Source: Escherichia phage ERS-1. From it: DNA of 64,000 nt. The translations under genes and the position numbers were made by a program. The notes under the pieces are model-generated. The model was not told the origin of the DNA, ran no database searches, and saw only the letters and a program-made list of their open reading frames with translations. Below, piece after piece: positions 1 to 60,139 of this stretch. Each line of letters starts with the position of its first letter. The stretch's first letter is position 1. The DNA lies in sequence record PP337211; one strand, given 5' to 3'.

Positions 1-1850
1 GGCACCGGGATGGCCCTTTGAGGGCGTCCCGGTTGGAGTACCCGGTGGTGATCTGGGTGATCACCGCCTTTGGCTTGTCTTTGCACCTCCGTCCGGTGGC
101 CGGTCGATGCGGTCGGCTTGCCGGCTCCTCCGCCGGGCGTCCGCTTCGGCTCGCCGCCGTCATCCTTCACCCGAGGATGCCCACCGCTTCCCGCCAGCGG
201 AAGGTCGTGCAGCCCTTCGCCCCGCCTTCCCGGCGCCGCTGTCTCGAAGTCCTCCCGCTGATGTCGGAGCGCCGCTCGCTCGCCGCGGAATCGACCCGCT
301 GGGCGGCGACGGTCGGGCGGCGACGTGTTCCTGGACGGTGACGCGGGAGCGCCTTGCCGCGGACCCGACGCGGTCCGCAGTCCTCCCTCCCCCGCGCCGC
401 GGGCCGCTGAACTCGATTGCGGTGCGGTCGAAGCTGTAGGCGAGTCGCTTCGGTCCCGGAGCTGACGTTGTCGGCCCAGGCTGACGGTCCCGGTCGGGGC
501 GATGGAAGTGAGGTGGGAGTTGCGGATGCCGTATTTGGCGATGGCGTCCTGCGTCCTCGCGGAGGGTCTTGATGAACTGGCCCTGAAGGTACTTGTCCTT
601 GTCGAACTTCGGGAAGGAGCCCTTGACCTTGGCGATGTGGGCGCTGGCCGTAGGGCTGCGCCTGCGTGTTGGTACCCTTGCCTCGAAGGCGAGGAAGGCG
701 GGCGAACCGTACGATGGCCTGGGCTTCGGCAGCGTTGGCCAGGCCGGTGATCCCGAGGCCCTTGCGGCGCTTGTCCTTGGCTTCCTGCTTCTGCGCGGCG
801 GTAGATCGCGCGATCGTACCGTTGTGCCATTGCGTGGACCTTCCTGCGGGATGTCCTCGCGGAACTGGTCCCGTCGAAGGCGTAGTGGCCCGCCCCGTCC
901 TCTAAGATGTACTTTACCTGTTGAAGGAGCCGGTGGTGCCGTAGGGCGGTAGGGTTGTCGTCCGTGGGGTTCGTGGCGGCGATGGTCTTGGGTTGGGCGT
1001 CGTTTGCGGTTGATCGCGTCGATGAACTTACGTCCCCGGCTCTGCCGGGTTGCCGGCTCGTGGCGATTGCGTCCTGGCGCCCGGGCGTCCGCTTCGCGGT
1101 AGGTCCGGCCCTCGAAGGTGAGGGGAACGGCTCGCCGGAGGCGACGCCGGCGCTGTCGGTGATGGCGACGGAGACGTTGAAGCCTGTTGCTTCTGGTCCG
1201 CTGAAGGGGATGATGGCCGCCGCTTCTCGGGGCTCCCTCCGGGAGTCGGTCCTCGAGGTCCGAGCGGCTGAACGTCCTTCCCGGGTCGCTTGGCGTGACG
1301 AACTCCTCGATGTCGGGATGGTCCGCGCATCACCCCCCCCGGGCTCCGCGGCGATGGCCGGCAGGAGGCGACGCACTGGGATCGCGTCGAAGATGTGCAT
1401 GAAGCTGATGGGGCCGGAGGAGTGGGACTGGAGCTTGCGGATCAGGTCGCCGCGAGGACGGAGGGTGCTGAAGTCAGGCCGATCCCGCCGCCCTTCCCGG
1501 TTGTGGCCTGCGGCTTCCGCGGCCCGGATTGACGGAGCCTTCGCCGTCCGCTTGAAGCTGTCGTTGATCGTCCCGGAGACGTAGCCTGTCCGTATGGCGT
1601 GACCTGGCGAGTGGAGCCCGTCGCGGACCGGATGCGGCCCGCCGGGAGGAAGTGGTACGCCTGCGAGGGCGTCCCGGAAGTCCGCGAAGTGCTGGTCATT
1701 GTCCTTCAGGGCCGCGGCGATCCGGTTCGTGGCCTCGCGGAAGGACTCGCCGCTGCCGCGGTACTTCTGGGCGTGTAGTTCTGTGAGTAGGGTACTTGAG
1801 GACCTGTCGGTGAGTCTCCTCGAAGGGTTGAGGGCTTTCTATCGTGTTGT
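1..1850 (-). CDS. Ribonucleotide reductase catalytic (alpha) subunit, copy 1; C-terminal end runs off the window start; frame broken by indels
   Basis: Reverse-complement translation gives RNR hallmarks spread over different frames: KYGIRNSHLTSIAPTGTV (~490-550), GFNVSVAITD (~1150-1180), HPDIEEFVHAK (~1300-1320), GKGGGIG and SSGPISFMHIFDAI (~1380-1500); GC3 is high in each motif frame. Confidence 0.8.
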
Positions 1851-1859
1851 TGCTCCTGT

Positions 1860-3026
1860 TCTTGGGCTAGGCGGTGAACGAGGTCGATGCGTTCCGCGGC
1901 CCGGGTAATGGCGGTGTACAACCCTTTCCTTCCGGCTCCTTCCCGTACCCCGTCCGGGGTGGCAGGACGTTGTTCCTTTGGGAGCCCTGCGACTTGTGGA
2001 CGGTGAGCGCACCTGCCCTGTCGAACTCCTCCGCGCCTTCCGCTCCCAGACTTCGGCTTGTTGCCGTGGAAGTAGTGGGGGTGGGCGCTGACTTCGACCT
2101 TCGCGCCGTCCTCGCCTTCGATGTCCTTGATGGAGTCGCTGTTGAAGATCGTGTCACGGCGGACCTTCCGGCTGGCCGTCGAGCAGGCCCGCCCTTCGTG
2201 GTCGTGAGGGGCCTTTGCCGTCGCCTTCCTGGGTGGGCGCGTCCGCCCGAGGAGTTCCCGGGACGTCGTCGCTCGTGATTCTCGTGGCGTTCCTGCCGGG
2301 TCAGGAGCTGGTCGGTGGACAGTACCATGTCCCGGAGTTCTTCGCGTGGTGGCGGCCATAGGAATCACGCGGCTGGCACCGTAGTCGCCGGGGGCGGAGC
2401 ACGCGGCCCTCGCGGACCTCCTTGGAGGTCCGGTCATCGGGTTGTCCTGGGCCTGGCGGTGAATCTCCGCGAGGACGTCGGGCTTGTCTTGAAGCAAGGG
2501 CGCTGCCGGGCGGGAGCTGTCCGGGATCGCCCGGGTGAGGACCGGTGCCGAAGTGAGGCCCTCCCCCCCGCCTGCCCGGACGGCGGAAGAATTCGCTTGC
2601 CGAGCGCGGCCCTCCAACCTGGGCGACTCCGCGTTGAGCTGGAAGGTCGGGCGGGCGAGGTTGATCTGCTCCGCCTTGATCGCCGGATCGACTTCTCCGG
2701 TCAGGGTTTCCGGGACGGGCTTGCGAGTGAGTAGCCGCGCCCGCTCCGCTTGGAGTTCCCTGGCGCTGCTGCGACTTGTCCTTGGGCGTGTAGATGAAGC
2801 TGCGAATGGTAATTCTCCGTTGGTCGCCCCGGACTTCGTGAGGACGTGAGCGGCCTTGCCGGTGTAGGCGGCGAAGGTGCCGGGACCTTTGACGGTCGCG
2901 GCGAGGTGTTTGGCCGGGTGGCCTGCCGGTTCCGGCGTACCCGGCGAGCTGGAAGGCAGGGCTTGTCCCGGGTCTTGACGTTGCCTGTCCTGGTTGGCGC
3001 GGTCTGCTGTTGGCGTACTCCGCGAT
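1860..3026 (-). CDS. RecD/Dda-like SF1B DNA helicase, copy 1; frame broken; start codon reads ATC where copy 2 has ATG
   Basis: Walker A AFQLAGYAGTG (~2930-2960), motif Ia FAAYTGKAAHVLTKSG, motif V TVHKSQGS (~1985-2010), motif VI LYTAITRAAERIDLV (~1885-1920), each in a different frame; RBS GGAGAA at 3032-3037 (rc). Confidence 0.8.
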
Positions 3027-3051
3027 GACCGTTCTCCGTTTCTGATAAGAA

Positions 3052-3072
3052 GGGGGGCCCTTGAAGGCCCCT
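3052..3072 (-). terminator. GC-rich hairpin between upstream gene and helicase RBS (terminator-like, no clear U-tract)
   Basis: Inverted repeat ggggggccc-ttgaa-ggcccc immediately upstream (on the minus strand) of the helicase RBS; conserved in copy 2. Confidence 0.35.
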
Positions 3073-3074
3073 GA

Positions 3075-3800
3075 AGGCACGCCGAGGGGGCGGGCCGTCC
3101 GGGCTGGTCCTCCCGGGTATCGGGTTGGCTGCCGCCGCCTGCGCCTGGGCTTCTCGTCGCGGCAGCCGGAGCTGGCGACGGGCGGCGCGGGCCTTGCCCT
3201 GCTGATCGTCGATTCGATGTCGGCGGACTGGAACAGCGGGTCATCGGGCAGGAGGCGAGCCGTGGGCGTTCTCTCGCCGTCGAAGGCGATGGTGTCCTGT
3301 TGAAGAAGGGCCCTTGTCGTCTGTCGGCTCGAGGCGGTAGCGGTGGGCGGCTGCGGAGCCGGGATGCGGCGACCGTCCCGGAATCCTGGATGGTCTTGGC
3401 CTTGTACCCTCTGCCCTTGTACTTCTTGATCTTCGTGGAGCCGAAGGCCCGACCGCTTCCCAGGCGTTGCCGCTGTTGCGCGTGCCGGCCCCGGTGGTGT
3501 AAGGTTCCGATTGGCTCGTTGCCGTCCGGGGGTGCTGCAGCTGCCGTGCTCGAGGACGCGGCCTTGGCGGTTCGCCGGGTCGCCGTCGACTCTGGGATGC
3601 CCGTTGCACCGCCGCCGCATCGCGGGGCTTCCACCACCGCACGTGCTGGGTGGTCGCCGGGACGAAGGCAATGCCCTTCTTGCCGTCCCAGACTTCGCCG
3701 GTCACCGGTGTTCGTGTACCCCGCCTGGCGGTGCTTGTCGTTCTCCTGGAGCTGCGGGCTGAGGGCCTGAAGAATCTGGAGGAACGGGATGCTGTAAGTT
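3075..3800 (-). CDS. Hypothetical protein upstream of helicase, copy 1; frame broken
   Basis: Protein-like peptides with high GC3 in rc frames: YSIPFLQILQALSPQLQENDKHRQAGYTNTGD, GEVWDGKKGIAFVPATTQHVRWWKPRD, STKIKKYKGRGYKAKTIQDSG, LLQQDTIAFDGE...DDPLFQSADIESTISRA. No family assigned. Confidence 0.35.
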
Positions 3801-4384
3801 GTCGCTGGTCCGGCTTCTCGAAACCCGCGCCCAGCCGTGCTGTGCCCTGGCCTCGCCGCGGCGGTGTTGTCTTTGTCGCCAGCGGTGGTCTTGCTATCGG
3901 TCTTGGCCCGGCGGCGCTGGCTCCTTCGGTTCGATGTGAGCGGGGCCGATTGGGCCCCCGGCTCGAATAGCCCTGCCGTCTGCCGGTGTACCCGCCATCG
4001 CCGCGGGGCGGTTGTAGGAAGGCCCGGGCCCGCCTCCTTCTGGGTCGTCACTTGGACGCTGACCACGGACCCCGAAAGGTTCTGGGACTTCCTGCCTTCG
4101 CTGTGGCCTCGCCGGCACGAAAGTGGTAGGGTTGAAGGATGGACGCTGGCGTTTGTCGTCGCCCGAACTCGTCCGCGAGACGCTGGCGGTTCGCTGCCTT
4201 CCCGCCTCGCCCTTGCCAAGGCGACTGGCGACCCGGCGCTCGATCAATCGCGGGCGTGGCCGTGCTCGCTCAGCTCAGGCGAAGGCGAGCGGGGCCTTGG
4301 CCTTCGGATGCTGGCGCCATCGTCTGCGGAATCCTTGATCTTCGGCTGGCGGTGGTCTTGGAGCTGCGGTATGCCGATCTGGTC

Positions 4385-4570
4385 CTCAAGTTTGGTACCC
4401 GGCGCTCCGCGATGTCGCGGAGTTCTTCGCGGGCCTTGTTGAGCTGGGCTTCGAGGCTGCGACCTTCGACGGGCGGCCTGTTGTTTGGCCCGCTGAGCCA
4501 GTTGGCGTGGCTTGACTCCGGCGGCTCGAGGTCTGTCTGGACGCGTTTTCCTTAGGCGTGGTTCTCCGTT
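4385..4570 (-). CDS. Small coiled-coil protein, copy 1 (start codon and stop both altered relative to copy 2)
   Basis: Homologous to 62703-62887; peptide ...KVADLEAQLDKAREELRDIAER; RBS GGAGAA present, but cacgcc replaces cacATGcc. Confidence 0.3.
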
Positions 4571-4596
4571 TCTTCGGCGAGGGTATTTGTATCGCT

Positions 4597-4630
4597 GAAG
4601 AAGTATAGCCGGTTGTTGCAAGAAGTAGAG
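4597..4630 (-). promoter_or_regulatory. Sigma70-like promoter, copy of the recurring family (-10 TATACT, -35 TCTACT, 16-bp spacer)
   Basis: rc sequence CTCTACTTCTTGCAACAACCGGCTATACTTCTTCAG; gene with RBS begins ~30 nt downstream. Confidence 0.45.
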
Positions 4631-6224
4631 GCCCAGGCGTTCACCGTGACCAGCGTTGGTCCTTGCCGCTCCGCTTGGAGGGATACGTCCCTTCGGTTGG
4701 TGTCCGCGGCGATGGCGACGGCGAACCCGATTGGGACTGGATCGCCCTTTGAAGGTGGTCCCCCGGCCCCGAAGCTTCGGCCGCTTCTCTTCGGTTTGGA
4801 ATGATTCGGCTCCGGCGGAAGGGGCCGCGGTCGGGCGGCGGGGCACCGGCCTTCCAACTCCTCCGCCGGCGAGGTTGAATTGGGCTCGAACCGCTGCTGT
4901 CGCGGTCCCTGCGGTGTTGGTCGGTGGCGGCTGACGGCTGGTAGTCTTGTGGTCCTGTCTTCCAGGCGGTCGCCGGTGATCTGGCTCGTCCCCGTTGAAT
5001 TTGTTCCTCAACGTTTTCCACCTTTCCTTCCCCTCGCAGTTCTCTGCCCTTGAGGTCGATGTACCCGCCGTTGTCGGTCTGTCCGATCCGGCGGGCGCGG
5101 CTCCTCCGACCAAGGCGGTCATTGAGCTTGAAGCTGTTGGAATAATAAATGACCGTCTTGGCCGCGGTCAAGGTGTCCGTGCCCGTCGCCCCCGCCGCGG
5201 GATCGCCCTGGCCGTCGCGGGCCCGCTCCTCCGGCGGACGGCCTCCGCCCGATCACCTGCCCGTTATGGTACAGGGGCGCTCGCCCTGGAACCTGGGCCT
5301 CGGCGTCCGCCCGCTCGTTGCGTTTCCCCTGCCGTTGGCCGGACCGCGCCGACGCCGCGCTCGCGGAGGGCGTCCGGATTGCGGCGATGCCGCTTTGCAA
5401 CTGGGCCCGGTCGATGCCCTTGCGCGGACTCCTCCATCAATTAGGTGCCGGGCGACGGTTCGGCCCCGCAATTCGGGTACCTTGGGTTCCGCTTCGTCGG
5501 TCGGGAGGTAGCTGTGATCTGCTGGAGGCGGAGGAGCCGGGTGATGGCGAGGGCGGCGATGACCGGGGCGGGGCCCTCCGCGCCCGTTGGGGGCGTCCCC
5601 GTCGGGTCGGTAGATGGAAGCGGTTGGGTTTGCCGCCGTTTGCCCGGCCCGTCGGTGCGTCTCGGCGACGGCTCGCGGCGACCGCTTCCGCGTCCCGGCT
5701 CACCCTGTTTCCCGCCCCTGTCATGTACTCGTCCGTGCTGGTGATATGCTTGCCCTGCTCCGGGGGTCCGTTTGGGAGAACTGCTCGCCGGTACTGTCGG
5801 CCGGGAGGTCTGGTGCGCCTCCCTTCGTGACCCGGGAGGAGACGGGCTGGAGTAGGGCGGTCGCGTGTCGGGCGGCGAGAGCCCTTCTGCCGTCCGTCTC
5901 CGCCTTCGTTCTTCTTGGTCTTTGGCTTGAAGGCGGTCGGGTCCTGCTCTTCCGGTCGTGAAGTGCTGTCTTGAACTCCGTGAAGGTGCCCTAGCGGTTG
6001 GGCTTCTGTAGTTGTTGTTTGTCCACCATCTCGGCTGTACAGGTGTTGAAGGGTCCCGGCTGTCGGAGTCCCGGCTGGGACCTGCCCTGAACGGCGCGTA
6101 CTTCGCGGAGCGGAGGATGGCAGCTGGTGCGCTCCGCGGTCGGGTCTTGATGCAGCGCGCCTTCCCTGACGTAATGTAGGCGGCGCTTGTCCAAGAAGTC
6201 GGTTGGCCCGCTTCCCGGAGGTGG

Positions 6225-32999: not shown

Positions 33000-33730
33000 C
33001 CCGGATCGCCGGAGCCGGTACCCGGTGACGGTTCGGCTCCGTCGTCGGCAGTCGTGGCGGTGATCCTTCGCCCGGCGGACCTGTAGCCGTCGCGGGTCGT
33101 GCCCGGAGGAGGTGGATGGCGCGGCGGTCGGCGGGGCGTTCGGCGTGTCGTTGCCTCGCCCTCCTTCGCCGGGGTTCGGGGCCGCGTGGCCTTCCCCCTC
33201 TGGGCGGCCTTCAGGGCCGCGCGGACTTCGCCCGGGACCTCGTCGAGCAGCTGGATCGCGTCGGCGTCCAGGGGCTCGCGCCCCGTTGAACTTCGGCAGG
33301 GCCTCCTCGAACCGCCAGCGGCCCGGGCGAGGGTCGCCTGAGCGTCGCCGGTCCGGGAACCTCCTGAAGTGACGGAAGATGTCCGCGGCGAGGCGGGCCG
33401 CTCCTTCCCTCACTTGGACAGGCCTTGGTCACCGTGATCTGGAGGGCAGCCCGGGCGTCTCCGCCGCAGAACCCGCTGGCTGGTAGCCTTCCCGGGGGCG
33501 GTTGATCGGTTTGGTGCCGCTTCTTTACCTCCCGGGGCGTTGCTGGGCTTCGTCCGCTCGCGGCGGTCGATGGTCTGCCCATCTCCTCCTGTTGTCCGCG
33601 GCGAGTTCGAGGAGGGACGCCCGGGCGCGGGCTTCCGATCCGCCCTGGGTCGTTCGCGTTCCGCGGTCGCGGAGGTCGTTGAGGGTGTTCTCCCGGGTTG
33701 GTAGTTGTTGGCCGGCGGTTGGGTTCTCCT
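33000..33730 (-). CDS. Hypothetical protein; frame broken
   Basis: rc peptides ENTLNDLRDRGT...EARARASLLELAADN, REGAARLAADIFRHFRRFPD, PLDADAIQLLDEVPGEVRAALKAAQRGKA. Confidence 0.25.
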
Positions 33731-33749
33731 TCAGAAGGATGATCTGCTT

Positions 33750-34500
33750 GACTTACCTTTGCCTGGTGCGGTCGAAGTCGCGGTGAAGTGGGTGATCTTC
33801 GGCTGGACTTGTTTGGTGGCACAGGCCCTCCGGGGTCGCGATTTGGCGTAGTGGATGGAGTGGACCTGGTTCCGGCCGGGTTGCCGGGTTCCTGACTTCC
33901 GCGCGGGCGAAGGACTGGAATTGGTAGCTGTCGGACTTGATCGTGAGGCGGCCTTGAAGTTGCCCAGGGACAGGACGCGGCGGGCGGTCAGGTCCTGGCG
34001 ACCTTGGTCGATGGTCTCCTCCAGGAGGACGGCCTTGGTGGCGTTGGCGGATTTGGTTTTGCTCTTCTTTTCTGGGAAGTTCGGCGGATCGGCTCCGCCC
34101 CGGGTTGGTGTATTGGTTGATGGCGGCGATGATTTCCTGCCTCCGGGTGGTCGAAGGCGAGTTGCGTGGCTTGTAGAAGGTTCCGCTCCAAGTCCTCGCG
34201 CTGGGGTACTTCTGGTAGGGCGTTGAAGCGGCCTGTGATTGGCTGCGGCGTCTCCGCTGACCTCGCCCGAGTAGCCGTTGGTGTCCTGCTGTTGGCTTCC
34301 GGTTCTCAAATTGCCGGGGGCGGGTATTGCGCGCTGTTGGACCTGCCGGCATGTACCCTGTACGCGCCGTCGTACTCCTCCGGGGCCCTTCTGGAGGTGG
34401 CTGGCAGGCCCTTCCCACCGGAGGAAGCCGCGCCAAGAAGGTCGGGAGGATTTGGAGGCGCTGTCGTCGTTGTCGATGCGGGTGGCGGTGATCTTGCTCG
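33750..34500 (-). CDS. Hypothetical protein downstream of promoter at 34.55 kb; start codon reads ACG after a canonical RBS
   Basis: rc GGAGAACTCAC-ACG-AGCAAGATC (would give MSKITATRIDNDD... if ATG); peptides EIIAAINQYTNPG, KAVLLEETIDQGRQDLTARRVLSLGNFKAA. Confidence 0.3.
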
Positions 34501-34544
34501 TGTGAGTTCTCCAGTTCCGTTGTGGCCGGCACCGTCCCGACCTG

Positions 34545-34580
34545 AAAGAAGTATAGTGGGGGCCTCCGAAGAAGTAAAGC
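34545..34580 (-). promoter_or_regulatory. Sigma70-like promoter of the recurring family (-35 TTTACT 34573-34578, -10 TATACT 34550-34555, 17-bp spacer)
   Basis: rc GGGGCTTTACTTCTTCGGAGGCCCCCACTATACTTCTTTCAG; near-identical to the site at 36953-36990. Confidence 0.6.
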
Positions 34581-34908
34581 CCCGGAGGTCGATCGGTTGA
34601 CGGGCGGTAGGGGTCGGAGTCCTCGCGCGGCGAAGGCCGGACCGCTCCCGCCTCGCCTTGTCGTGGATTGTTCGCCGTCCGCCTCCGCCGTCGGTCCCGG
34701 TCCCGAAGCTGAAGCCCGGGATCGTCGCGCGGAGGACCGCGAGCCGTTGGGCGAGACGTTCGGGCGATCCCCGTTGCGAACTCATCGCCCGGCGGAGTTC
34801 CCCGGCTGGCCTGAAGGATTGGCGAGGGCGTCCGCGGGACCTGGAGGGCTTGATCGCCGGCGCGGTGGCCCTGTTGTCGTTGATTCGTTTCCTGCGAGTC
34901 GGGACGGG

Positions 34909-35616
34909 TCAGGGCGACGGCCCGGGCCTCCCCGAGGGCTCCGGTGAAGGCCCTGCGGTTGAGGACCCCGGTGAGGGGTCCTGGTAGGTGGCGGCGCAGG
35001 CCCCGCCCTCAGCTTGCCGCGGAGGGCTTCGAGGAGGTTTGGGCGCTTCCGGCTGGTTTTTCGGGTTGCCGATCCGCTGGAGGTCGGTCTGGGCCTGGCC
35101 GCGCACTTCCGCGTGCTCCTCGGCGGTGGCCTTGATCTTCGGCTCCTCGCCTTCCTCCGCGTAGAAGGCCCCGGACTTCGAGCAGGCAGGCCCCGGTCGC
35201 GCGGTCGATTGTTGTGACGACGTGGACCGTCTCGATGCCGTAGCCGTTCCTGGCGTCCCGGTGAAGGTGTAGCGGTGGCGGCGGTTGCGTCTGAAGGCGG
35301 CGTGCGCTTCTTCGGCTCGCCCGCTGTTGGGCTTCGGCTTCGGCGGGCGAGTGCGGGACCCGGCGGGCGACCTCCTGGGCGGCTGCGTTTCCCCTTCCTC
35401 GAAGTCCGGGAGGGGCGTCGATGCCCGCTGCCGATGCAGCCCGCGGGGCCTCGTGGAACTCCTTGCCCGCGTAGGGTCCGAAGGCGAACTTGCCGCCCGA
35501 TGGCTGGCGCTTCTCCTCCTCCTCCGCGGCCCGTTCCGCGGCCCTGCGGTCCTCGCGTCTTCCGCTCGCGCTCCCGGCGCTCGGCTCGCGGCGTCGGCGC
35601 GGTGAATCGCGTTCAT
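34909..35616 (-). CDS. Hypothetical protein with RBS-supported ATG; frame broken
   Basis: rc GGAGGAA-ATG (ATG is complement of 35614-35616), N-terminus MNAIHRADAAS; peptides GKFAFGPYAGKEFHEAP, NGYGIETVHVVTTIDRATGACLLEVRG, AFYAEEGEEPKIKATAEEHAEVRGQAQTDLQRIGNPKNQPEA. Confidence 0.35.
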   Translation of the reverse strand: MNAIHRADAASRAPGARAEDARTAGPRNGPRRRRRSASHRAASSPSDPTRARSSTRPRGLHRQRASTPLPDFEEGETQPPRRSPAGSRTRPPKPKPNSGRAEEAHAAFRRNRRHRYTFTGTPGTATASRRSTSSQQSTARPGPACSKSGAFYAEEGEEPKIKATAEEHAEVRGQAQTDLQRIGNPKNQPEAPKPPRSPPRQAEGGACAATYQDPSPGSSTAGPSPEPSGRPGPSP

Positions 35617-35762
35617 TTCCTCCCCGGAGGGAGTCGCGGGAGGTCGTGAGCTTCAGGCCCTTGCGCCTGGTGCTTCCCTGGGCCTTCTCGAAGGCTTCGT
35701 CGGGTCCTGGCCTGGCTCTTGACGTGGTAGCTGCGGACCTCGAAGGAGCCCTGAGGCTGCCT

Positions 35763-36915
35763 TCACCGTTGCGTTGCCCGGGCCGGGACCCGGGACGGCG
35801 TGGGTACGTCTCGCGGAGGGTGAAGAAGCTGTGCTCCCCCGACTCCGATGAAGGGTGGGGACGAAGGTGGAGGGGTTCTGGGTGCGGTTGTCGATGTGGT
35901 AGGCGGTCGAGCTCCTTTCTTGGGTGGGGAGGGCCTGAGCCCTCCCGTTCGATTGGCTGGCCGAACTTCCGGGGGCCCCGCGGCCTCCGCGAGGTCCGAA
36001 GCCGATGGCTCCTGTTGCCGTCGGCGCGGAGGACCTTTGTCGACCTGGCGGATCGCGCGATCGCCGGTGAAGGTCCGGGCGGCGCTGGCCTTGGCTTCGC
36101 GGGTGCCGGGAACTTTTGCGCGGCCCCGACTTCGCCCTGGGAGGTGGTGCCCTGTCGACGGTTCGCGGGCGGCGTGGGTCTGGCGGGAGGATGGTTCGAT
36201 CGGTTCTCCGCTTCTCAGGTTGTTAACGTGAAGAAGCAGACCTGCCGCCGTTTGCCCGAAGAAGTAAAGCCCCTGGTGGCCTCTTTTTCGACCCGCGAGG
36301 AGGGAGGGCCGAGCCTCCCGCTTCGTCTCGCCTTGCCTTCGGCTTCCCGGCCTTCGCCTCCGCGGCGGCGATGATGATAGACGGGGCAGGGTGCCGTTTG
36401 GTAGTAGAAGGCCCGGAGGAAGGTGGTGCCGTGCTGGCTTGTTCGTAGTGGACGTTGGCGTGGACCGGGAGCCCGCCGAAGATGTCGTGGAGGCGGAGGG
36501 CGTTGTTGTACTGCTCCTGCGCTCCTTCCGTCGCGGATGGACTTGGTTGCGGCTTCGACCTTGGCGTTGTCGCTGGCGCGTTCGATCTTCACCCTTGCCA
36601 GCGGCCTTGATAGCGGCGCGGACGGCTCCGAGGGCTTCGATCTGGGCGACGGTCGCGGCGGTCTGCGGGTCGCGGAGGGCGAGGGCGGAGTGCTTGGCCT
36701 TCCGTTGTGGGGTAGTCGGCCAGGTTTGGGCGCGGTCCGACCGCGGTGCGGGCGTCGTGCTGATGTCCGGTACCCTGCCGGCGACGTCGCGCTTCTGGCT
36801 CGAAGGCGCTGTTGAGGTCGCGGAGGGCTTCTCGTCGAGCGGCCTTGGAGGTGAAAGCCGGCCTCGAAGCGGGCGGTGGCGCGGTCGATGTAGAAGGAAG
36901 CGGTGCGGGCCGATG
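35763..36915 (-). CDS. Hypothetical protein; start codon reads ATC after RBS GGGAGAA; frame broken
   Basis: rc peptides FYIDRATARFEAGFHLQG, ALRDPQTAATVAQIEALGAVRAAIKAAGKGE, ARVKIERASDNAKVEAATKSIRDG, TTFLRAFYYQTAPC. Confidence 0.3.
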
Positions 36916-36952
36916 TTCTCCCGTTTCTGTGGTTGCCGTTCTCGTTGAACGT

Positions 36953-36990
36953 GAAGAAAGTATAGTGGGGGCCTCCGAAGAAGTAAAGCC
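36953..36990 (-). promoter_or_regulatory. Sigma70-like promoter of the recurring family (-35 TTTACT 36982-36987, -10 TATACT 36959-36964, 17-bp spacer)
   Basis: rc GGGGGGGCTTTACTTCTTCGGAGGCCCCCACTATACTTTCTTCACG. Confidence 0.6.
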
Positions 36991-39900
36991 CCCCCCGCGC
37001 GGTTCTTTTGATTCGGTGGGCCCGTGGTGGTCCCGAGCTGGCCGGCCCCCTCCCTCCGCTCCTCCGCTCCTTTCGCCCTGTTGGCCCCCGGCTCCCCGGC
37101 GGCATCTTCGCCGCGGCCTCCGCCATCCGGGCGCCTCGCGGTCCGTGTCGTGGAGGATGCGGCCAGTTGCCGAGTCGATTTGCTGCGGGTCCCTTGGGTT
37201 CTCCTTCTGGGTCGCCCCGGAGGACGTTGGGTGCTCGGAGGAGGGATCTGGCGGGGTGGTCTTTCCTGGCCGGCGTGGACGGCTTGCGCGCCTTCCGGCT
37301 TCGACCTGCCCCGCTCCTTCGCCCGTGCGCGGTGCGGGTGTCCCGCGGCGGAGATCCCCGGGATCGGCACGCCCGCCCGGCGATAGTAACCTCGGCAACG
37401 GCGATGTTGGGCTACGGCCCCTGGCCGGGTCGCTTCGCGTCGGGTACCGCCCAACCCTGCGGGCCAGGTCGGTCTGCGCGGAGCGCATTGCCTTCGGCGG
37501 GCGCTTGGGCTGGAGCCGCCCTGGTCCCGCCCGGCAACTGGACCGTGGAGGGTTCCACCCCGCCGCCGGGTAGGCGCCTGGAGGTTGCGTCGCCCTCGAG
37601 GTGTCTGGCTTCGCCGGATCCGGTTCGGCCGTCGAACGGGATCGCCCCGACCTGAATGACCCCGGCGTCGGCCGGTCGCCGCTTCGTTTTCCTGCCGATC
37701 GGCGCTGCCGGTTCGCGTTGTCGTCGTGATCACCTTCCTCCTCTTTGTTTGATCTCGCTTTGAAATCCCGGGGCCTTTGTTGCGGCATCCCGGACCACTC
37801 GCCGCCCTCCGCCTTTTTAGGGGCGGGCCTCCGTCCGGTTGAAGGGGTGAGCGGCGGTGGTCCGCTGGTCCCGGTGTGCGACTCCCAGTCGCGGGAACCG
37901 ATAGGCCCCCGGCGGGGGTTGATGAAGTAGCGTGGGGCGACCGCCTCCGAAGCGGTGCGGAACCGATAGGCCCCTGTGCCCTGCCACTCCCCGCGGCGGG
38001 GTTTCCTCCGGCTCGTCCGCCTCCCGGCGGCGGGCGCTTCGCCTTCCCCTTCTTGACCTTGCGGACGCGGGCCTTGCCGACCGGGCTGTTCGAGAAGGCG
38101 AGGTGGAGGGCGTAGCGCGGTGACCGTCCGCTGGCCGTCGATTGGCTGAGTTCTCCGGCTTTGGGTTCGGAAGAAGTCCGGCTCCTTTGGCTCGCCCGGG
38201 GGGCGGTCGCGTCCGCTCCGGCAACCTGACCATCCTGCAGGGCTGACGCGGCGGCGGGTGAACCTGTGAGCCCAGGGGGGTGAATCTGGATCTTGTGCCC
38301 TGCTGCGCTGGGATCCCTGTGACGTTCTGGAAGGACTGGGCCGTGGTCTGGAAGGACCTTCACCCCCGGGCCGTCTGCCCGTGGAAGGGTGTAGGCCCGG
38401 TGGGCGACTCCGGCCCCAGGTGGTCGCCCGGGAGGTCCGGATGAAGTCCTTTGCCCCGCTTCCCCGTCGTTTGTGGCGGGTTCGGTGGTTTCTCCGGTAG
38501 GGGTTGTTGGTCGAAGCCCGGGGCGGTCCTGTCCCGGGCCCGTGATCGGTCCCGACTCCGGCGGCGGGGCGGCGGGCGTCCGCCTGAACCTGCTCCGCCT
38601 GCCGGCCGCCGCGAACCGGGTTGCCCTTTGGCCTGGCGGGTTGAAACGGAGGTCTTGGCCTCCTGGCGTGGGCGTAGCCGTTCCCTTCTTGGTTTGAAGG
38701 GAACCTCCCGGGATGTACCCGGCCCTCGGTCCCGGTTCTCCTTCAGTTCTGGCCCTCCTCTCGTCGTCCGTTCCTTGCCCGTGCCGCTCCGCTCCTCCCT
38801 GAGGTCGCCGCGAGCCGTCGCCGGTCGGACGCCCGGGCCTTCTGCGCTGTTCCTCACAGCCTCCACCTGCCGACGGAAGGGCGAAGGCGAGAAGGCGGAG
38901 GCCCCCGTGGATCGCCGCGTCGGAAGGTTTGCCGGCGGCCGCTCCGCCTTGGGCTTGTACGTCCCGTGGGGCGCTTGTTCGGGGTCTTGGTTTGGTGCTG
39001 GCCCTCCTTCGGGTGCCGATGAATCTGGTGCCAAGCGGTCCGGGTCGCGCTCCTCGCGGATCGCCTCCCGGTGCCCGCCCTCGATCCGTGCTCCCGTGCC
39101 AAGCCCCTGGCTCGCCCTGGAAGGCGAGCTGGTGCGCTTCCCCGGTCGGCGCCCGCTCCGGGTAGGTGAGCTGGGCGGCAGTCCTTGCCACGTTCTTCCT
39201 GCCCGTGCCCGTCCGTGGAGTTCGCTGAAGTCGCCCGAGGCTTCGACTTGGCAACGGTACGCGGCCCGTCCTCGAAGGCCCCGCGGGCGGTTTGGCGTTG
39301 AATCTCCGCGAAGTGGCGACGGAAGCGGGCCGCGCGGAACTGGAGTTGGTGGGCGACGGACGGGCCGCCGAGGACCTCGTCCGCGGTGTGATGCCCTGCC
39401 CGCTGTCCGTAGTCGCGGACCTCCTCCGGCTTCGCGGAGGGTACGGCGGCGGCGATTGCCTCGAAGGCGACGGCCGGGTAGCCTTGCGCGCTGCCTCCTC
39501 GCCCTTCTTCGGGCGTAGGTTCCGAAGAAGCGATGGCCGGGTTGTTCGTCTTGATCCGTGTTCGTCTCCGTGTCGATCCGGGGTTTGTCGTCGTCCGGCT
39601 TCGGGAGGAGGGCGATGGCGCCCGCTTCGCGGAGTTCCTTCGGTGGAGCGGTCGCGGTCCCGGGATCGCCAGGCCGGTGAGCCAACCGATGAGCCGGCGT
39701 GTCGGTGGCGGCGGGTCGGCTTCCCTGGAGTCTTGGGCAAACACTCCCGGCGCTGGACCCGGTGCACCTGCTCCGAGGCGAGGACGCCCCGGGCGATGAC
39801 CTGAACCCTCCCGTCCGTGAGGGAGGCGTTGCCGGCACTCCTCGGCTGGGTACGGCCGGGCTGCTTCGTCCGTTCGTCCCTGCCGGCCCTCCGTGGAGTT

Positions 39901-42871
39901 CCCCGAGGCGCTGATCTGCCTGCGCCACTTCCCCGTGGCTTCTCTGGCGGTTTGAGGTAGCGAAGGCGGCGCGCTGCTCCTGGTTTTCGTTCTGCTGCCT
40001 TCGCCCGTTGGCTTCGAGGCGCTTCTGCTTCTCCGGTACGTCGCGGCGAGTTCCGCCGAGCGGCCCCTCCCCGAAGGCCCGGACCGCATCCTGGGAGGCC
40101 ACCCGGGTCGATGTTGTCGCCGTACTTCTCCCCCTGGTACTCCGCGGCGGCTCCCGCCGTCCCGATCGGTCTGGAGGAGGCGCTGCTGGCTCGTGGCTGG
40201 CTGGTCGATGTCCGTGGAGGACTTCGCTGGCGGACTGGCGATGCGATCGGACCGTGACCTGGTACTTGCGGGGGTCCTCCGGGTTGCGCCCGAGGCGGGC
40301 CTGGCACGCCTGGATGGTAGTGGTTGTGCTGGTTCTCCTTCGGCGGTGGGGGTTGGCTTTCCGAGGTGGCCGCGGCCCGTAGACGTTCGCTGTCCTGGCC
40401 CTCGAAGAAGCCCCCGGCCTGGAAGGTCGGCCACCGTCCTTCGGCTCCGGCGGCGACCCCCTCCGCGGACTGGTCCGTTGGGGCGGCGTCCGCGGACTCG
40501 AAGCCCCGGCGGTGAAGAAGTGGCCGGAGTCGCTGAGGATGTAGAACTTGTCCGGTTGTCCCAGCGCGCTCCCCGGCTCCGGAGGTTATCGCGTGCTGGA
40601 CTTTCTTCCGCACGGGCTCCGGTCCGTTGCGGCGGCGGTTCACCCCCATCTGGAAGCTTCGCCGGCCCCCGAAGGTCGTTGCTTCTCCGCGACCTGGGCG
40701 AGGGTGATGAAGATGTTTGCGGGTCCTTTGCAGTTCCTGGACCTGGCTCTGGTCCAGTGTCTCGACCGGGACGGCGGCGACCGTGGCGAGGCCAGTGACC
40801 TGCTCCGCCACCTCGCCCGGTCGGCGGCGACTTCCGCCGGGCGCTTCGCCGAAGGCGTCGTCTGCCCTGCGGGTGATCGATTCTTGGGTTTCGTCGCTCG
40901 TTTGGTTCTCCGAGGTTCGGGGTACGGTTGCCCTGGGGTCGGGCGGGATCGTGCCTGTCCTGCCGCTCGAAGCGGGCCGGGTCCGGCTTCGCCCCACCTC
41001 CGCCGGGAGGACCCGGACGGAGGGGCGAGGCGTGGGGAATTGCTGCCGATCTGCGGCTCGCCGGACCGTCTCCTGGCGTTATAGGGGCCGGTCCTCCGGT
41101 GCCGCCTGCGTGGCGAGGTGGGCCAGGGCGAAGATCCTGCGGTTTCGGTCGGGCTCTGCGCTTCGAGGTGGTCGGTGGACTGGAGGAGGTCGCCGGGGAG
41201 GGGCGGGCGTCCTCCGCCTCGCGCTTGCTCCTGGAAGGCGTGCCGTGGGTTGTCGGAACAGCTCGTGTCCTGTCTTCCCCGCCCTGCTCCTCCTTCGGCA
41301 GGTCCGCGGTGTCGGCGGGAGGCTGCCCTGCCCCGGCTCGTTCCGCTCCTGGGCGTCCCGCCCGAGTTCGTTCCTGTCGCTCCTGGAACTCGCGTTCGGC
41401 CCTCGCCTTCTGGGCGTGGGCTTGTTGGTGGATGCCGTGGACGGCCCGGCGGCGGTCGGGCGTCTCCGGTGAGACGGATGGTGGTCTTGCGGCTCAGGCG
41501 GTTCTCCGGTGATCTGTTCGCCCGGAAGGGAGGCGATGGTGTCGGCTTGGTTCTGCGGTGCGGGTTTCAGTCGCACCTGGCCGGTGGCGGAGGTGGATGA
41601 CCCTCAACGGCGTCCGGCCTGTCCGGTCCCCGGAGGTGCGCTTGCTGATGTAGATTTTGCCCGCTGCCCGGCCTGGACCTCCTCGCCCTGAGCCGCCAGG
41701 ATGATCGGGTACTCCTGGACGGCGAAGCCCTGCTGCTTGCAGAAGCCGCGGCCTTCTCCGCCGGTCCGTTCCGCTTGCCGGCGGTTGGGTCGCCTCCTCG
41801 CGGAGCTGGTCCCTTTACCCGGCTGCGAAGCCTTCGGCGCGGAGCGGGGGCGAGGAGTCGAAGCTGCGGGCGAGTTCGGAGACGGTCGCCAGGAAGGGCT
41901 TGGACGGCTCCACGCCCTCGAACTCCGCCTTCGCCGAAGGTCGCCTTGGGCGCGGTGACGGCCTTCTTGACGGGGGAGCCGTTGCGACTTGCAGAAGCCC
42001 GCGACGGGACGGCGGCGCTGATGTCCCCTTACCCTTGATGGCCCGATCTTCCCGTGTTCGGCCTTCTTCTGGATGTTGTAGGTGAACTGCGAGGGGTTGT
42101 CCTGCCGGTAGGCTTGTACGCCCTGGCAGACGAAGTGGGACGGGCCGGGATGGATGTGGACGGCCTCGTGGCGCTCCTGGGTCGCTGGCAGGATGATGTC
42201 GGAGCGGAGGCCGGTGTCCCGGCCCCCGCCCGGGACCCGGTTGCGGTTTCGTCCGCGGCGACTTCCGGGACCTCGCTGGCCTCGAGCCTCGCCCCGTTCG
42301 TCCTTCGTGTTGCAGTGGCTCGCGGAAGGCTTGCCCACTTTTCCCTGCTCCGCCGACCTCCGTGGTGAAGCCCGGACGGCGGTTGTTCGCTTCGCTACCG
42401 TTGAAGTCGGTTGACCGGACGTGATCCCGCTTGATGCCGAACTCCGGCTTGCGCTTCCCGGCGTGAATGGTGATGTCGTGGCCCTCGCGGAGGAGGATGG
42501 CGATGGCGCAACTGAGGCCGGTCCCGAAGAAGCCGATGGCCCCGGGGGTTCTCCTTCCAGCTGACCCCGAAGGTGGTGATGGACTTGGGGTCAAATGATG
42601 CCCTTGTTGCGGAAGATTATCCGTTGTGACTCCTCTTGGGTTGTTGAAGGGACCTTACTCCTCCCCTTGCCGGCGGTCCGGCAGGGCTCTGTCGATCTGG
42701 GGAGCCGTCCGCGTTGCCCCGCCCCTCCGGTTGTAGCTGATATGAACCTCCGGGCGGTCCGGTAGTCTGGAGACCCTGCTGGTGCCCCGGTGGTGACGGC
42801 GAAGGCGCAGCGGAGCCTGCCGGCGTGGTCGTGCCCCGCCGGCGTCCCTTGCAGGCCGAAGGCGATTGACT

Positions 42872-42979
42872 TCAACGAATCGCAACGGCTTTGCCTGGTC
42901 CTCGCGCCGACTTCTTGCGGTTTTGCGCCGCGCGGGATCGGGTGCCCGTGTATGCGGCGGAAGGCTTCTTGTAGTTCAT
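42872..42979 (-). CDS. Small basic protein (35 aa as read; may be truncated by a frameshift)
   Basis: rc AAAGGAGCAGCCCATC-ATG (ATG is complement of 42977-42979): MNYKKPSAAYTGTRSRAAQNRKKSARGPGKAVAIR then stop; ~65 nt downstream of the promoter at 43.05 kb. Confidence 0.3.
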   Translation of the reverse strand: MNYKKPSAAYTGTRSRAAQNRKKSARGPGKAVAIR

Positions 42980-43044
42980 GATGGGCTGCTCCTTTCCAAT
43001 CTTGAATCGCGGGTGCTGGTCTGGGGTTGGTTGTTTGGACTCGT

Positions 43045-43081
43045 GTGAAGAAGTATAGTGGTTGTCCGAAGAAGTAAAGCG
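43045..43081 (-). promoter_or_regulatory. Sigma70-like promoter of the recurring family (-35 TTTACT, -10 TATACT, 15-bp spacer as read)
   Basis: rc CCGCTTTACTTCTTCGGACAACCACTATACTTCTTCACAC. Confidence 0.5.
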
Positions 43082-43599
43082 GTTTGGTGGTTTGGCGCGC
43101 GGCGGATTTCCCGCCGGACCTGAAGGCGGGCGTTGAGGGCCGCGCGGTGGTCGGAGGAAGTCCGCGGCACGTGCACCTGGGGCTCCCCCCTCGGTGAAGC
43201 GGACCTTGCAGCGTCCTGGCCTGCTCCTCCGTGTAGGCCATCCCGCCCCCTCGGCTCCCGCTTCGTCGCTTCCGCGTGTCGCTCGGCGGGGGTGCTCCTC
43301 GGGAACGGCGGCTTGTCCGACTTCGGGCTGTCCTTCTGTAGGCTCCTGGGTCGGTCGACCTTGGGCGAATCGAACGGGCTGCCGGGTCTTGTCCCTGTGC
43401 GCCCGGACCTGCTCCGCGGCGGGAGGTGGGCGCAGGCGCGCTCTCGATCGTGCGCCTCGAAGCCGTTCGTTGGTTGGAATTTCCGCCAGTTTCTGCTCCG
43501 ACTGCGGCCTGCTGTCCGGGAAGGCCCGGTGAGCGCTTGCCGAAGCCGGTGCGGCTGGCGTGGAGTTCGGCCTGGTCGCGGAGGTCGTTGGCGTAGTCG

Positions 43600-46400
43600 T
43601 CCGTGGGTCCTTCACCACCTTGCCGCTCCGCCTGTCCTGGTCGGTCTTGAGGCGGCCCTCCCCTGGCTCCTGGCCTTCCCTTTGGGTTTCCGGTGAGCGC
43701 CGTCACTTCTGGTCCTGCAGGGCGCGGGTCTCGGGGGGACTGGCGAACCTCGAAGGTGCTTGTGCCGGGTGAGGAGGAAGTGGAGGCCTGTGTTGGGCCC
43801 CTGTTGTCCGGTTGTCCTTGATGCGCTTGAAATAGGCGTGGTCCTGCTTGTGGCCCTCGCCCCTTTCGTGACCGAGAACCGGCGCCTTCCGGGCCCCGTA
43901 CCTTCCCGGACCCTTCGTTCGAGGCGAGGACCTGGTGGAGGTGCTTCGGCCGCTTCCCGTCCGCCCTTGCCCTCGATCCCTGGTGTTCGGTCATCAGGGT
44001 CGAACCTGCTTTCGTGCTTCTTGTCTCCGGCGAAGAAAGCCATCACCGAACAGCAGGACTAACCAGATCGCGGAGGTGGGCGTTGAAGGAGCCCACCAGG
44101 CGCTTCGAGTCGCTGACTTGGAGGTAGTGACGCCCAACATCGTGCCCGTGACCTTGGCGAAGAAGGACTTGCCGGTGCCGCGGCGACCGCGGAGGACCAC
44201 GGCCCTCGCCCGGGCCGTCCGGGGTGCTGGACCTCCGCGCCCCTCCCGACAGGTAGCGGCAGTGCTCCGGGTTCCCTGAGCCTGGACGTCGTCGCGGATG
44301 TGGTCGGGAAGGGCGCGCTCTCGCCCGGGAGGGAGTCGCCAACCCGCGCCTGGGTCGTAGGCTTCTTCCACCTCCTGGCCGGGGGTGGTGATGGGCTCGT
44401 GTTGGCGGCGCTGGGCGATCCGTTTGTAGGCTCCCGCGGCCTTCTCGATGGGCTTGCCCTCCTCCAGCGCCCAACCACTTCACCTTGATGTGGCGGTAGC
44501 GGTTGCGGAAGTCCTCGAAGGACTGCTCGCTGATTTGGTCCGCTTCATCGCTGGGTCCCGAACCTCGCTGACGATGCGGCACTTCTTCTGCCGATGTCCG
44601 CGACTGACGGCGTGCTTCTCGTTGAAGCTTGCGCGGCCAGGGTCCACCGCCTCCCCGCGGGCGTTCGATCTGCCGTGGGCGTAGCCTTCCCGTTCGGCTT
44701 GTCTCTGACGCTCGCGGCGATTTCGTCGGAGCCGGTGATCACCGCGAAGACGTTTGGGGACCTCCGCCGCCAGGTTGGTGCCTCCAACCTGGCTTCCCGA
44801 CCGGCAGAGGGGTACTGGTCGGGTCCGTGGGTCCTGCCCGGTGCCCTGCCCTGCGTGGTCGCTGATAGCCTTCCCGCGCCGGCCGGGCTCCGGCTCCTCC
44901 GTCCCGATGTCCGGGACGTTGCCCGTGATCTTGCCTTTGCACGGCCCCCCGGCCTGGCCCTGCTCCGCCTTTGGACTCGAACCGCGGGGGCGAATTGTTC
45001 GATGGGGCAGCTGGCCTCGTCGCTACGAGACGGCGAGGGTCGGCTGGCGACCCTTCTTGACCTTCTTCGCGGTGGGCGTCGATCGTGCCCGGGAGGCGGG
45101 CGATGCGAGCTCCGTTGTGGCGGTCCGCCTGAAGCACCTTCTCCGGCTGGATGTTGTACGCTTCCGCTCTGAGCCTTCGCCGCCGATCCGGCGATGTCCG
45201 CTTGTCGGACGGGTTTGGCTGCCAAGCCCTGCATAGCCCCCGCCCGAGTCGATGATGACCGTGGGCTTGGCGTGTAGGACTGGAGGCTTCGGCGCCGCGC
45301 CCGCTCCTCCTCGAAAGCCTCCCCGGCTCGCGGTCGATGTCCCGTGAAGCCTGGCGAGGCGGGCCAGTTGTCCTCCTTCGAGGCTTTCACGTTTGATTCG
45401 CCGGCGGACCGGGTTGGCGTGGAAGGCGTTGCGCTTGCCCTGATGCCCTTCGATCGCTCTGCGGCCTTCTGCCTGTGGTTGGGCGGAATGCCACCGTCTC
45501 CGTTTTCCCGTCCGGGATGATGGCCGTTGGGTACCACGGCCTCCCGGTCCCTTTCCTCCTTCAAGAAGTCGATCGCGTCCTTGGTCTTGTGTTTTGGTGT
45601 TTTCTGCCCATTTGATCCCCCGGCTGAAGGATATTCCCGAAGGCGCTGGCCGCGCTTTCCCCCGTCCTCCTTTGGATGACCGGAGGCGTGTGCCGGAGGC
45701 GGCGGCGATTTCGCGCTGGCGTTTTGCCCGCCCGGCGGCGGATGGGAACCGGCGTGGGCTTCGGCTCGTCCGAGGTGCTGGCGCGGTCTGATCGTCCGGC
45801 GGCGGTCCGCTTCCCGTCGCAGCGGTCCGGGCGCCTGTCCTTCGCGGCTTCGATCGGTTGAGGCCCTTGCGGCGGCGGTGTAGGCTTTCGCCTTGGTTGG
45901 TGCGGCAGGCCGGGCAGGACTCCTTGGTTCTTGGAAGGCGTGTCCGCTTGTGCGGCCCCTGCCCGTTGTCGTTCCCGCGAACCTGGCCCTGGTGCCGGCT
46001 ACCGTCCTTCCAAATAGACGCCGTCTCGTTCCCCCGACCTTCGGCGAGGAAGGCCCGGCCCCCGGCCTTGCGGCGACGGGCAGCGTGTCCTCGCTGGCGG
46101 TGAAGTGGTCCGCTCAAGCGGTCCGCCCCTGGGCGGCCTGTGTTGGTGAATTTCAATTTGGTTGCTGGTTGTAGTTCACGTCCGGGTCCCGGCAATGGGC
46201 TTCTCCTCGCCGGTCCGGTTGGCGACCGGATGACGGGGCGGAGGGAGTCCGCGTTGCGGCTTTGCTGGTTGCCCTCCTTCCACGTCGTAACGGCGGGCGA
46301 CTTCCGGCCTTTGACGCGCCGATTCCCTTCCTGCCCCCTCCCCCGGATCGCGGCCCGAGTAGTCGATGCCCGGGAAGGCGACCCGCTTCGCCTGCCTTCC
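43600..46400 (-). CDS. Primase-polymerase (PrimPol) / SF3 (D5-like) NTPase replication protein; frame broken; boundaries approximate
   Basis: PrimPol-type motifs KPTVIIDSGGGYAG and AYNIQPEKVLQADRHNGARIARLPGTIDAH (~45150-45270); C-terminal P-loop AVVLRGRRGTGKSFFAKV followed by GRHYLQVSDSKRLVGSFNAHLRDL (~44050-44200). Confidence 0.55.
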
Positions 46401-46429
46401 CCGCGGCCTCCAGGCTGTTGGACCTGGGG

Positions 46430-46445
46430 AAGAAGTATAGAGCGT
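46430..46445 (-). promoter_or_regulatory. Probable promoter -10 element of the same family (TATACTTCTTC); -35 degenerate
   Basis: agtata at 46434-46439 (rc TATACT) upstream of the primase-helicase gene. Confidence 0.3.
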
Positions 46446-47094
46446 GAAGCCGTTGTGAGCCGCAAAAAGTTGAGCGCGATTTGACCTCTGCGCAGGCTAC
46501 GTGCCGGCAATTCGTACCGCGGTCCGGGTGCAGGGCTCGGCGAGTTGTTCGTGCCCGGGCGGAAGCCGTTGAACCCGGTCGAAGCCCGCTGTCGTTGGGC
46601 CTGGAACCGTGACGGCTCCGACCTTCGTGGAGGGTCCTTGTCCTGCCCGCGACGTGTTGGGCCTGCCGAGGCGGCGGTCCCTGGTGGTTGCGGTCCTGCG
46701 ACGTTCCCGAGGAAATAACCGCTGGAGCCGTCAAGGACTCTGCCCCTTCTCGCGGCCTAGGGCCTGGCGATACCGTTGCTGCCCGCAAACTTTGGCAGGA
46801 CGGTGCCGTGATGTCGCTGCGCGGCCCTCGATCCTTCCGGTGACGGTCGGGGGTTGCCCGCGCGGCCCTTCTTCTCGACCGCGCGGACCTGGTCCGGTTC
46901 CCCCCTCACCCGCTGTGGTCGATGAGGTATGCCTTGTCTGTCTCGCGCTCGATGACCCTTCCGAGGTCCGGTGTTGTCGTTGCTGCGGCGGTGTTGTTCT
47001 CTGGGGGTTCGCCCCGGACTTCCTCCGGGCGGCGGCCCTTTGCGCGTGTGTTGGTGGGTGAGCAAGTGACCTGCGCGTCTGTTGATAGGGACTT

Positions 47095-53955: not shown

Positions 53956-54143
53956 TTCGTCAGATGGTCCTGAAGGCTGATGGCCCCGGCAGGCCGTGCC
54001 GTTGTGGTCGTTGCCGGTGTTCTGTGACTTCTGGGCGTAGCTGTAGGGGTTCCGCTTCGGGTGCCCATGGCCCGTGACGGTAGCCGAGACGGCTGGAAAG
54101 AAGATGGTGCCGGGCTCCCGAAGGCTTCCGCCCCCGCCGGGCG

Positions 54144-60130: not shown

Positions 60131-60139
60131 GTTGAGGGC

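Follow-up and report, generated by a model that had tools for sequence, protein, structure and literature searches.

Organization of the window and its relatives

The window (the whole 64,000-nt stretch of DNA analysed here) is ∼1.1 turns of the genome of a Yuavirus (M6/YuA/PAE1-like) Pseudomonas phage, and all of its genes lie on the − strand. Its overall layout is as follows.

1–64000, − strand: the whole window, a continuous, error-rich, read-like Yuavirus genome sequence, collinear with and 81–83% identical to PAC6, Pa-C, PAE1 and BL8
1–5700: copy 1 of an overlap, the first pass through the RNR / Dda-like helicase / small-genes region; aligns to 58301–64000
58301–64000: copy 2 of the overlap, the second pass through the copy-1 region; maps to PAC6 41663–47578, as does copy 1

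Pseudomonas Yuavirus phages (PAC6, PaTs-2, PAE1, BL8, Pa-C and others) match the window at 81–83% identity over 99% of 12-kb queries. Altogether 65–69 phage records match, most of them Pseudomonas Yuavirus, and 22–42 cover at least 80% of the 12-kb queries. HSP chains run across the whole window to PAC6, Pa-C and PAE1, placing it within Yuavirus by both similarity and gene order. At polymorphic sites the window agrees about equally with each of these three phages (42–46% each), and no much closer reference was found. An exact match to a noisy 46-mer of the window was also sought in collections of viral and metagenome contigs, and none turned up. An accessory region (35412–37510) is missing from PAC6 and for the most part from PAE1, but has collinear counterparts in Pa-C and, in part, in BL8; early-gene mosaicism of this kind is usual for Yuavirus genomes.

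The opening ∼5.7 kb of the window recurs at 58.3–64 kb, with a spacing that drifts from 58,285 to 58,332. Aligned locally, the two copies are 85.5% identical and differ by 346 substitutions and 370 indel events (716 scattered events). Both passes fall on the same target, PAC6 41663–47578, which is a single-copy region in that reference. The overlap is thus one genome read twice, across a terminal redundancy or a concatemer junction, and not a gene duplication. The sequence extends at least 5.7 kb (about 6 kb true length) past one genome length, or at least 10% of the unit. This excess is compatible with either headful terminal redundancy or a replicative concatemer.

Reference spans are about 5% longer than the corresponding window spans, and the net deletion is about 5.5% (39,468 bases of the window align with 41,761 of Pa-C). 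The repeat period of 58.3 kb becomes about 61.7 kb once corrected for this loss. Yuavirus genomes are expected to measure about 60–62 kb with a GC content of about 64%; the 58.3-kb period and the 68.4% GC of the window agree with these values only after error correction. We infer that the window represents either one long read of a single molecule, left uncorrected, or a contig derived from such a read.

Start codons at the flagged genes

The initial annotation had drawn attention to canonical ribosome binding sites followed by ATC, ATC and ACG at three gene starts, and to a small gene that had lost its ATG in one copy of the repeat. The sites and their repeat counterparts are listed below.

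3021–3037, − strand: flagged site 1, RBS GGAGAAC plus spacer and a collapsed ATG, Dda-like helicase (‘putative exonuclease’) gene
61304–61306, − strand: helicase start in copy 2, ATG; the window reads GGTCATGACGGAG, the references GATCATCATGTGGAG
36912–36914, − strand: flagged site 2, an ATC that is probably a spacer triplet, the next ATG being collapsed to G
34499–34501, − strand: flagged site 3, antirestriction-protein gene, with ACG instead of ATG
4555–4567, − strand: flagged site 4 in copy 1, where GGAGAACCAC runs straight into G and the ATG has lost its AT
62885–62887, − strand: flagged site 4 in copy 2, ATG intact

The letters themselves were reported correctly. The − strand reads GGAGAACGGTCATCGCG at 3037–3021, with ATC at 3026–3024, and the helicase start in copy 2 reads GGAGAACGGTCATGACG, with ATG at 61306–61304. 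Likewise, GGGAGAAC-ATC is found at 36922–36912 and GGAGAACTCAC-ACG at 34512–34499 (both on the − strand). For the small gene, the loss itself is real (GGAGAACCAC-ATG at 62887–62885, GGAGAACCAC-G in copy 1), but it lies at about 4557–4558 and not at 4570.

The interpretation of these letters changes once orthologues are brought in. Comparison with orthologous phages, a check that the initial annotation had itself proposed, returned ATG at all four sites in every aligning reference, which argues against a biological reading. At site 1, the references read GGAGAACGATCATCATGTGGAG and the window GGAGAACGGTCATC--GCGGAG; split by codon, this is GGAGAACGATCATC-ATG-TGG in the references and GGAGAACGGTCATC--G-CGG in copy 1. 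The ATGTGG stretch contains two adjacent TGs. At site 2, BL8, Pa-C and PAE1 read GGAGAACATCATGACC and the window GGGAGAACATC--GGCC (by codon, GGAGAACATC-ATG-ACC in the references and GGGAGAACATC--G-GCC in the window). All references carry a spacer that itself ends in ATC before the ATG (..GATCATC-ATG-TGG.. at site 1 and ..AACATC-ATG-ACC.. at site 2). On these alignments, the ATC triplets at 3024–3026 and 36912–36914 are most parsimoniously the spacer triplet, with the true ATG cut to a single G. Both copies of the helicase start are 2 nt short relative to the references, and local alignment in copy 2 is ambiguous: its ATG may be the true ATG or a miscalled spacer ATC.

The two remaining sites are simpler. 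At site 3, PAC6 and Pa-C read GGAGCACACGACATGAGCAAGATCACC and the window GGAGAACTC-ACACGAGCAAGATCACC; this ACG is a typical T>C change, the commonest miscall at TG (see below). At site 4, the references and copy 2 share GGAGAACCACATG. In the real DNA, every flagged position is almost certainly ATG.

The window holds two copies of a 36-nt element, GAAGTATAGTGGGGGCCTCCGAAGAAGTAAAGCCCC (34548–34583 and 36957–36992; 0 occurrences expected by chance), each just upstream (− strand) of a flagged gene. It is also found twice in phage Pa-C, with matching spacing, and is probably a conserved hairpin or promoter element of early genes. The element is read cleanly because its − strand contains no TG.

Start codons across the genome

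Altered starts are the rule in the window and are not confined to the three or four genes first noted. We compared the aligned starts of the 93 annotated CDSs of PAC6. Intact codons are left at just 8 of 81 ATG starts, at none of 8 GTG starts and at 1 of 4 TTG starts, so that 73, 8 and 3 starts, respectively, are altered; the damaged starts include those of the terminase, portal, capsid and DNA polymerase genes. Starts are nevertheless hit no more often than chance would have it under the noise model: ATG survives at 8.8% of its occurrences anywhere on the − strand (n = 740) and at 9.9% of starts (binomial p = 0.69). All eight TG-containing trinucleotides survive at 5–14% on the − strand, against 24–79% for the other 56. 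ATG, GTG and TTG each contain TG, and therefore about 90% of the start codons of the window are corrupted.

These counts bear directly on whether the altered starts are real, either as losses that inactivate a gene or one of its copies, or as near-cognate ATC and ACG codons that initiate translation behind a canonical RBS. The codons are literally there, behind intact GGAG-type RBSs, and copy 2 has an ATG where copy 1 lacks it. But a genome in which about 90% of starts are altered, those of essential genes included, and in which frameshifts occur throughout would not belong to a viable phage. The inactivated copies envisaged earlier are not paralogues at all: both map to one single-copy region, both are TG-damaged, and the repeat is one genome read twice. 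Near-cognate initiation fares no better, as the orthologues have ATG, start ATGs are lost at the rate of any ATG, and two of the supposed initiation codons are mis-registered spacer ATCs. We regard real start-codon loss or non-canonical initiation as having almost no chance of being correct. The flagged start codons are a base-calling artefact, and the genes are neither inactivated nor dependent on unusual initiation.

Errors centre on TG of one strand

The errors in the window are TG-, strand- and site-specific. On the − strand, T in TG is correct relative to PAC6 at 19.2% of 3,664 sites, as against 86% for T in TC, 72% in TA and 67% in TT. The T of TG is read as C in 27–28% of cases, A in 15% and G in 10%, and is deleted in 27%. 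The picture is the same at sites conserved in PAC6, Pa-C and PAE1: T in TG is 18.6% correct (n = 2,695), T more than 6 nt from any TG is 91–98% correct, and overall accuracy more than 6 nt from any TG is 93.9%. By offset, agreement is lowest at the T itself (0.19), reaches 0.60 on the G, 0.66 at −1 and 0.71–0.76 at ±2, giving a footprint of roughly ±5 nt that returns to about 0.9 by ±6–8. Positions within 2 nt of a TG make up 32% of bases and 62% of discrepancies.

All 16 NTGN contexts are affected, each being 11–31% correct, and with no clean exception among them we rejected a motif wider than TG. TC, proposed as a second target from restriction data, leaves no footprint in the window (86–89% correct). 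The pattern is uniform along all 64 kb and strong on one strand only: in every 4-kb bin, T in TG is 10–26% correct on the − strand and 59–83% correct on the + strand. Uniform strand bias in all sixteen 4-kb bins led us to reject a mosaic assembly from reads of both strands. The − strand of the window behaves as the strand that was read.

The overlap provides two passes through the same sequence. Both copies are wrong at 230 of 320 TG sites, with the same wrong call in 151 of these 230 and differing calls in 34%. At positions where the reference has A, the copies are jointly wrong 298 times against 148 expected (odds ratio 28). Substitutions and indels are a single phenomenon, concentrated on TG of one strand. 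The suggestion that single-base noise is superimposed on the indels therefore holds as far as noise is concerned, but this noise is not generic. Modification-induced nanopore errors are strand-specific (PMC11610603), and the errors in the window are tied to a motif, restricted to the read strand, accompanied by a k-mer-sized footprint and reproducible, as modification-induced miscalls are.

One alternative is generic, modification-independent noise of an early long-read chemistry that hit start codons by chance. Some of the damage is doubtless ordinary noise or real divergence: away from TG, comparison of the window with PAC6 still gives about 6% substitutions, 2.3% deletions and 0.9% insertions, and a separate bias affects A after a pyrimidine (see below). 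Generic noise fails, however, to produce 81% error at a dinucleotide of one strand while T elsewhere is 91–98% accurate, and predicts neither a symmetric ±5-nt footprint nor identical miscalls by two independent passes. An inherent error of 80% at TG is not known for any sequencing platform reading ordinary DNA. We consider generic noise distinctly unlikely.

Alternatively, the changes might be real hypermutation at TG, with mutagenic or damaged thymine derivatives fixed as T>C. T>C is indeed the commonest change at TG (27–28%), but the T is also often deleted (27%) or changed to A (15%) or G (10%), and the damage extends to neighbouring bases. Moreover, at 34% of the sites where both passes are wrong their calls differ, and the pattern is seen on one strand only, whereas fixed mutations would show equally on both. 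Hypermutation is, in our judgement, extremely improbable.

Divergence from PAC6 was likewise considered. Relative to PAC6, A on the + strand (T on the − strand) is kept at only 61–63%, with about 14% read as G and about 15% deleted; G is kept at 93–95%. We rejected true divergence as the source of the A-specific loss or of a CA>CG excess, because changes into A are at or below 0.4% and the patterns persist where PAC6, Pa-C and PAE1 agree.

Deletions outnumber insertions by about 3:1 and their rate grows with homopolymer length, a profile that is nanopore-like, though not decisive for the platform. A PacBio-type origin was considered, since modification of the template strand could give errors at complementary positions. 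The ∼3:1 ratio of deletions to insertions, the ∼6% substitutions away from TG and the homopolymer deletions fit nanopore better, again without being decisive.

Residual bias and distorted composition

A second, weaker bias is present. On the − strand, A after C or T is miscalled as G at 15–18%, as opposed to 3–4% after A or G. The excess (CA 17.7%, TA 14.7%) is seen more than 6 nt from any TG at sites conserved in the three references. Modification of TG on the opposite (+) strand is not supported as the cause of the excess at CA, because that at TA is nearly equal (14.7% versus 17.7%). We suspect that the pyrimidine-A>G bias is a generic base-caller bias, not accounted for by TG modification.

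The GC content of the window is 68.4%, compared to 64.2–64.5% in the references; A on the + strand amounts to 10.4%, compared to about 16%, and the AT skew is about −0.35. Loss of A on the + strand (T on the − strand) thus raised the GC content of the window, and composition-based inferences drawn from it are unreliable. Reading frames are similarly distorted. TGA survives at only 13.5% on the − strand, and the loss of TGA together with frameshifts gives rise to spurious ORFs. For example, a spurious 1,744-aa ORF (35763–40997, − strand) spans roughly a dozen and a half small reference genes. The ORF structure of the window is interpretable only against a reference.

The thymidine-hypermodification cluster

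The window encodes a set of DNA modification genes, which we located through Pfam domains of the PAC6 orthologues and tblastn of the PAC6 proteins onto the window.

50141–56693, − strand: thymidine-hypermodification cluster (M6 type)
54727–55100, − strand: remnant of an HNH homing-endonuclease gene, flanked by the radical-SAM and PLP genes and visible as an HSP gap

The cluster contains a thymidylate-synthase homologue, Nmad5, a HMUDK helical-domain protein, a 5-hmdU DNA kinase, a radical-SAM enzyme, an HNH endonuclease insert, a PLP enzyme and an amino-acid:DNA transferase, and is collinear with PAC6 33416–40038. Among the PAC6 orthologues, Pfam identifies Thymidylat_synt (4.6e-18), HMUDK_HMUD1 (7.4e-18), HMUDK_hel (7.1e-56) and ADDT (1.3e-46). 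Six of the seven PAC6 cluster proteins are covered at 92–99% by tblastn; Nmad5 is covered at only 31% and is split over frames. The core of the 5-HMUDK pathway (dUMP hydroxymethylase TS homologue, 5-hmdU DNA kinase and aGPT-Pplase) is therefore encoded in the window.

Two further genes mark the branch of the pathway. Radical_SAM (1.7e-4, below the Pfam cut-off) is found at PAC6 36811–38253, a gene that is the M6 gp53 orthologue by position, with its own orthologue at 53304–54675 of the window. PALP (5.7e-10) is found at PAC6 38325–39161, with the orthologue at 55099–55875. The radical-SAM isomerase and PLP decarboxylase that characterize the M6 branch are thus both represented. The PaMx11 branch has an FAD oxidoreductase and an acetyltransferase instead (PMC5889632, PMC8989533).

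The HNH remnant (about 370 nt) is absent from PAC6 and Pa-C. It matches same-position HNH endonuclease genes of PC1, LKO4 and PSP2 at 75–77% identity, and PAE1 carries a different HNH gene at this position. It represents a mobile endonuclease within the modification cluster.

In M6, 5-(2-aminoethyl)-2'-deoxyuridine (5-NedU) replaces 30% of T, and the same modification is predicted for YuA, MP1412, PAE1, LKO4 and AN14 (PMC5889632). The sites in M6 DNA that resist restriction have TG or TC in common, and purified M6 5-hmdU DNA kinase modifies TG (PMC6449724, the latter from unpublished data cited there). In an Acinetobacter phage, a related 5-HMUDK-pathway modification is placed predominantly at TG and is near-saturating (PMC13458397). 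Our literature search found no report on the nanopore behaviour of 5-NedU DNA. Counted over both strands of PAC6, Pa-C and PAE1, TG accounts for 32.7% of all T, whereas TG and TC together would account for 71–72%; TG alone therefore fits the measured 30%. Misreading of ∼81% of − strand TG sites, combined with this share, is compatible with modification of about 26–33% of T, although misread bases do not measure the chemistry.

A thymidine derivative other than 5-NedU could cause the same artefact. Residual 5-hmdU, phospho-5-hmdU, an Nα-glycinyl-T intermediate and PaMx11-type 5-AcNmdU/5-NmdU are candidates. Sequence cannot reveal chemistry, and the pathway has several DNA-borne intermediates (PMC8989533); moreover, PaMx11 and Ab18, which belong to the M6 family, have a different end product (PMC5889632, PMC8989533). 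The radical-SAM and PLP genes of the window, however, mark the M6 (5-NedU) branch and not that of PaMx11, and the 32.7% share of TG among T matches the 30% measured for 5-NedU. We judge another derivative unlikely.

Origin of the altered start codons

By far the most probable explanation of these observations is that a − strand of native Yuavirus DNA was read, that the thymines of its TG dinucleotides were hypermodified and that the miscalls follow from this. Under this model, the phage would replace about 30% of its thymidines with 5-(2-aminoethyl)-deoxyuridine after replication, by way of the 5-hmdU DNA kinase pathway encoded in the window. The modified thymines would be located at TG dinucleotides, where they would distort the signal, presumably that of a nanopore. 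The base caller would then delete or miscall the T about 81% of the time and degrade about 5 bases on each side. Corruption of TG would affect about 90% of starts, TGA stops and internal TG-containing codons, and the outcome would be the apparent near-cognate starts, indels and frameshifts. The remaining ∼19% of TG sites, which are read correctly, could reflect incomplete modification or lucky calls.

Implications

We conjecture, with somewhat less assurance, that the miscall footprint is a de facto one-strand, base-resolution map of Yuavirus hypermodification, which would fall on TG alone, independently of flanking bases, with an occupancy of at least about 80% throughout the genome. If so, each ATG, GTG or TTG start and each TGA stop would contain a modified T in its coding DNA strand. 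Such a map would sharpen the inference of ‘TG or TC’ published for M6, and the 5-hmdU DNA kinase would be a near-saturating, dinucleotide-specific DNA-modifying enzyme.

There are also practical consequences. The whole window is a corrupted read-out, in which starts, stops, ORF lengths, frameshifts, GC content and AT skew are distorted, and other findings from it that are based on single bases or on ORF structure are suspect. DNA of this kind would defeat standard long-read base calling, and native long reads of Yuavirus-like phages would need polishing with amplified-DNA or short-read data. Conversely, a strand-specific dinucleotide error signature may be used to flag hypermodified phages in long-read data.

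Comparison with known systems

The window shares with genuine non-AUG initiation and start-codon pseudogenes only the appearance of an RBS followed by ATC or ACG. Its codons are absent from the real DNA, orthologues do not conserve them, and two are out of register.

Nanopore errors at bacterial methylation motifs (PMC11610603) are a closer parallel, as they too affect one strand, centre on a short motif, are reproducible and have a k-mer-sized footprint. The window, for which the nanopore platform is our own surmise, is far worse, with about 81% of motif sites wrong. Its motif is also only 2 nt long, so that roughly one base in three is no more than 2 nt from a site and the read is ruined across the genome.

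The α-dapT of Acinetobacter phage SH-Ab 15599 (PMC13458397) and the putT of ΦW-14 follow the same 5-HMUDK / aGPT-Pplase logic as the window, but differ in the appended group, the host and the phage lineage. α-dapT was placed predominantly at TG by restriction mapping (PMC13458397), whereas the evidence in the window consists of read errors.

The closest known systems are the phages of the M6/YuA/PAE1/LKO4 group (Yuavirus), with which the window is collinear at 78–83% raw DNA identity over nearly its whole length, rising to 94% at reference-conserved sites away from TG. They have the same set of modification genes (TS homologue, Nmad5, 5-hmdU DNA kinase, AADT, radical SAM and PLP). The window differs in its accessory region, which follows Pa-C. 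The published context for M6, derived from restriction resistance, is ‘TG or TC’, whereas in the window TC shows no footprint and is 86–89% correct.
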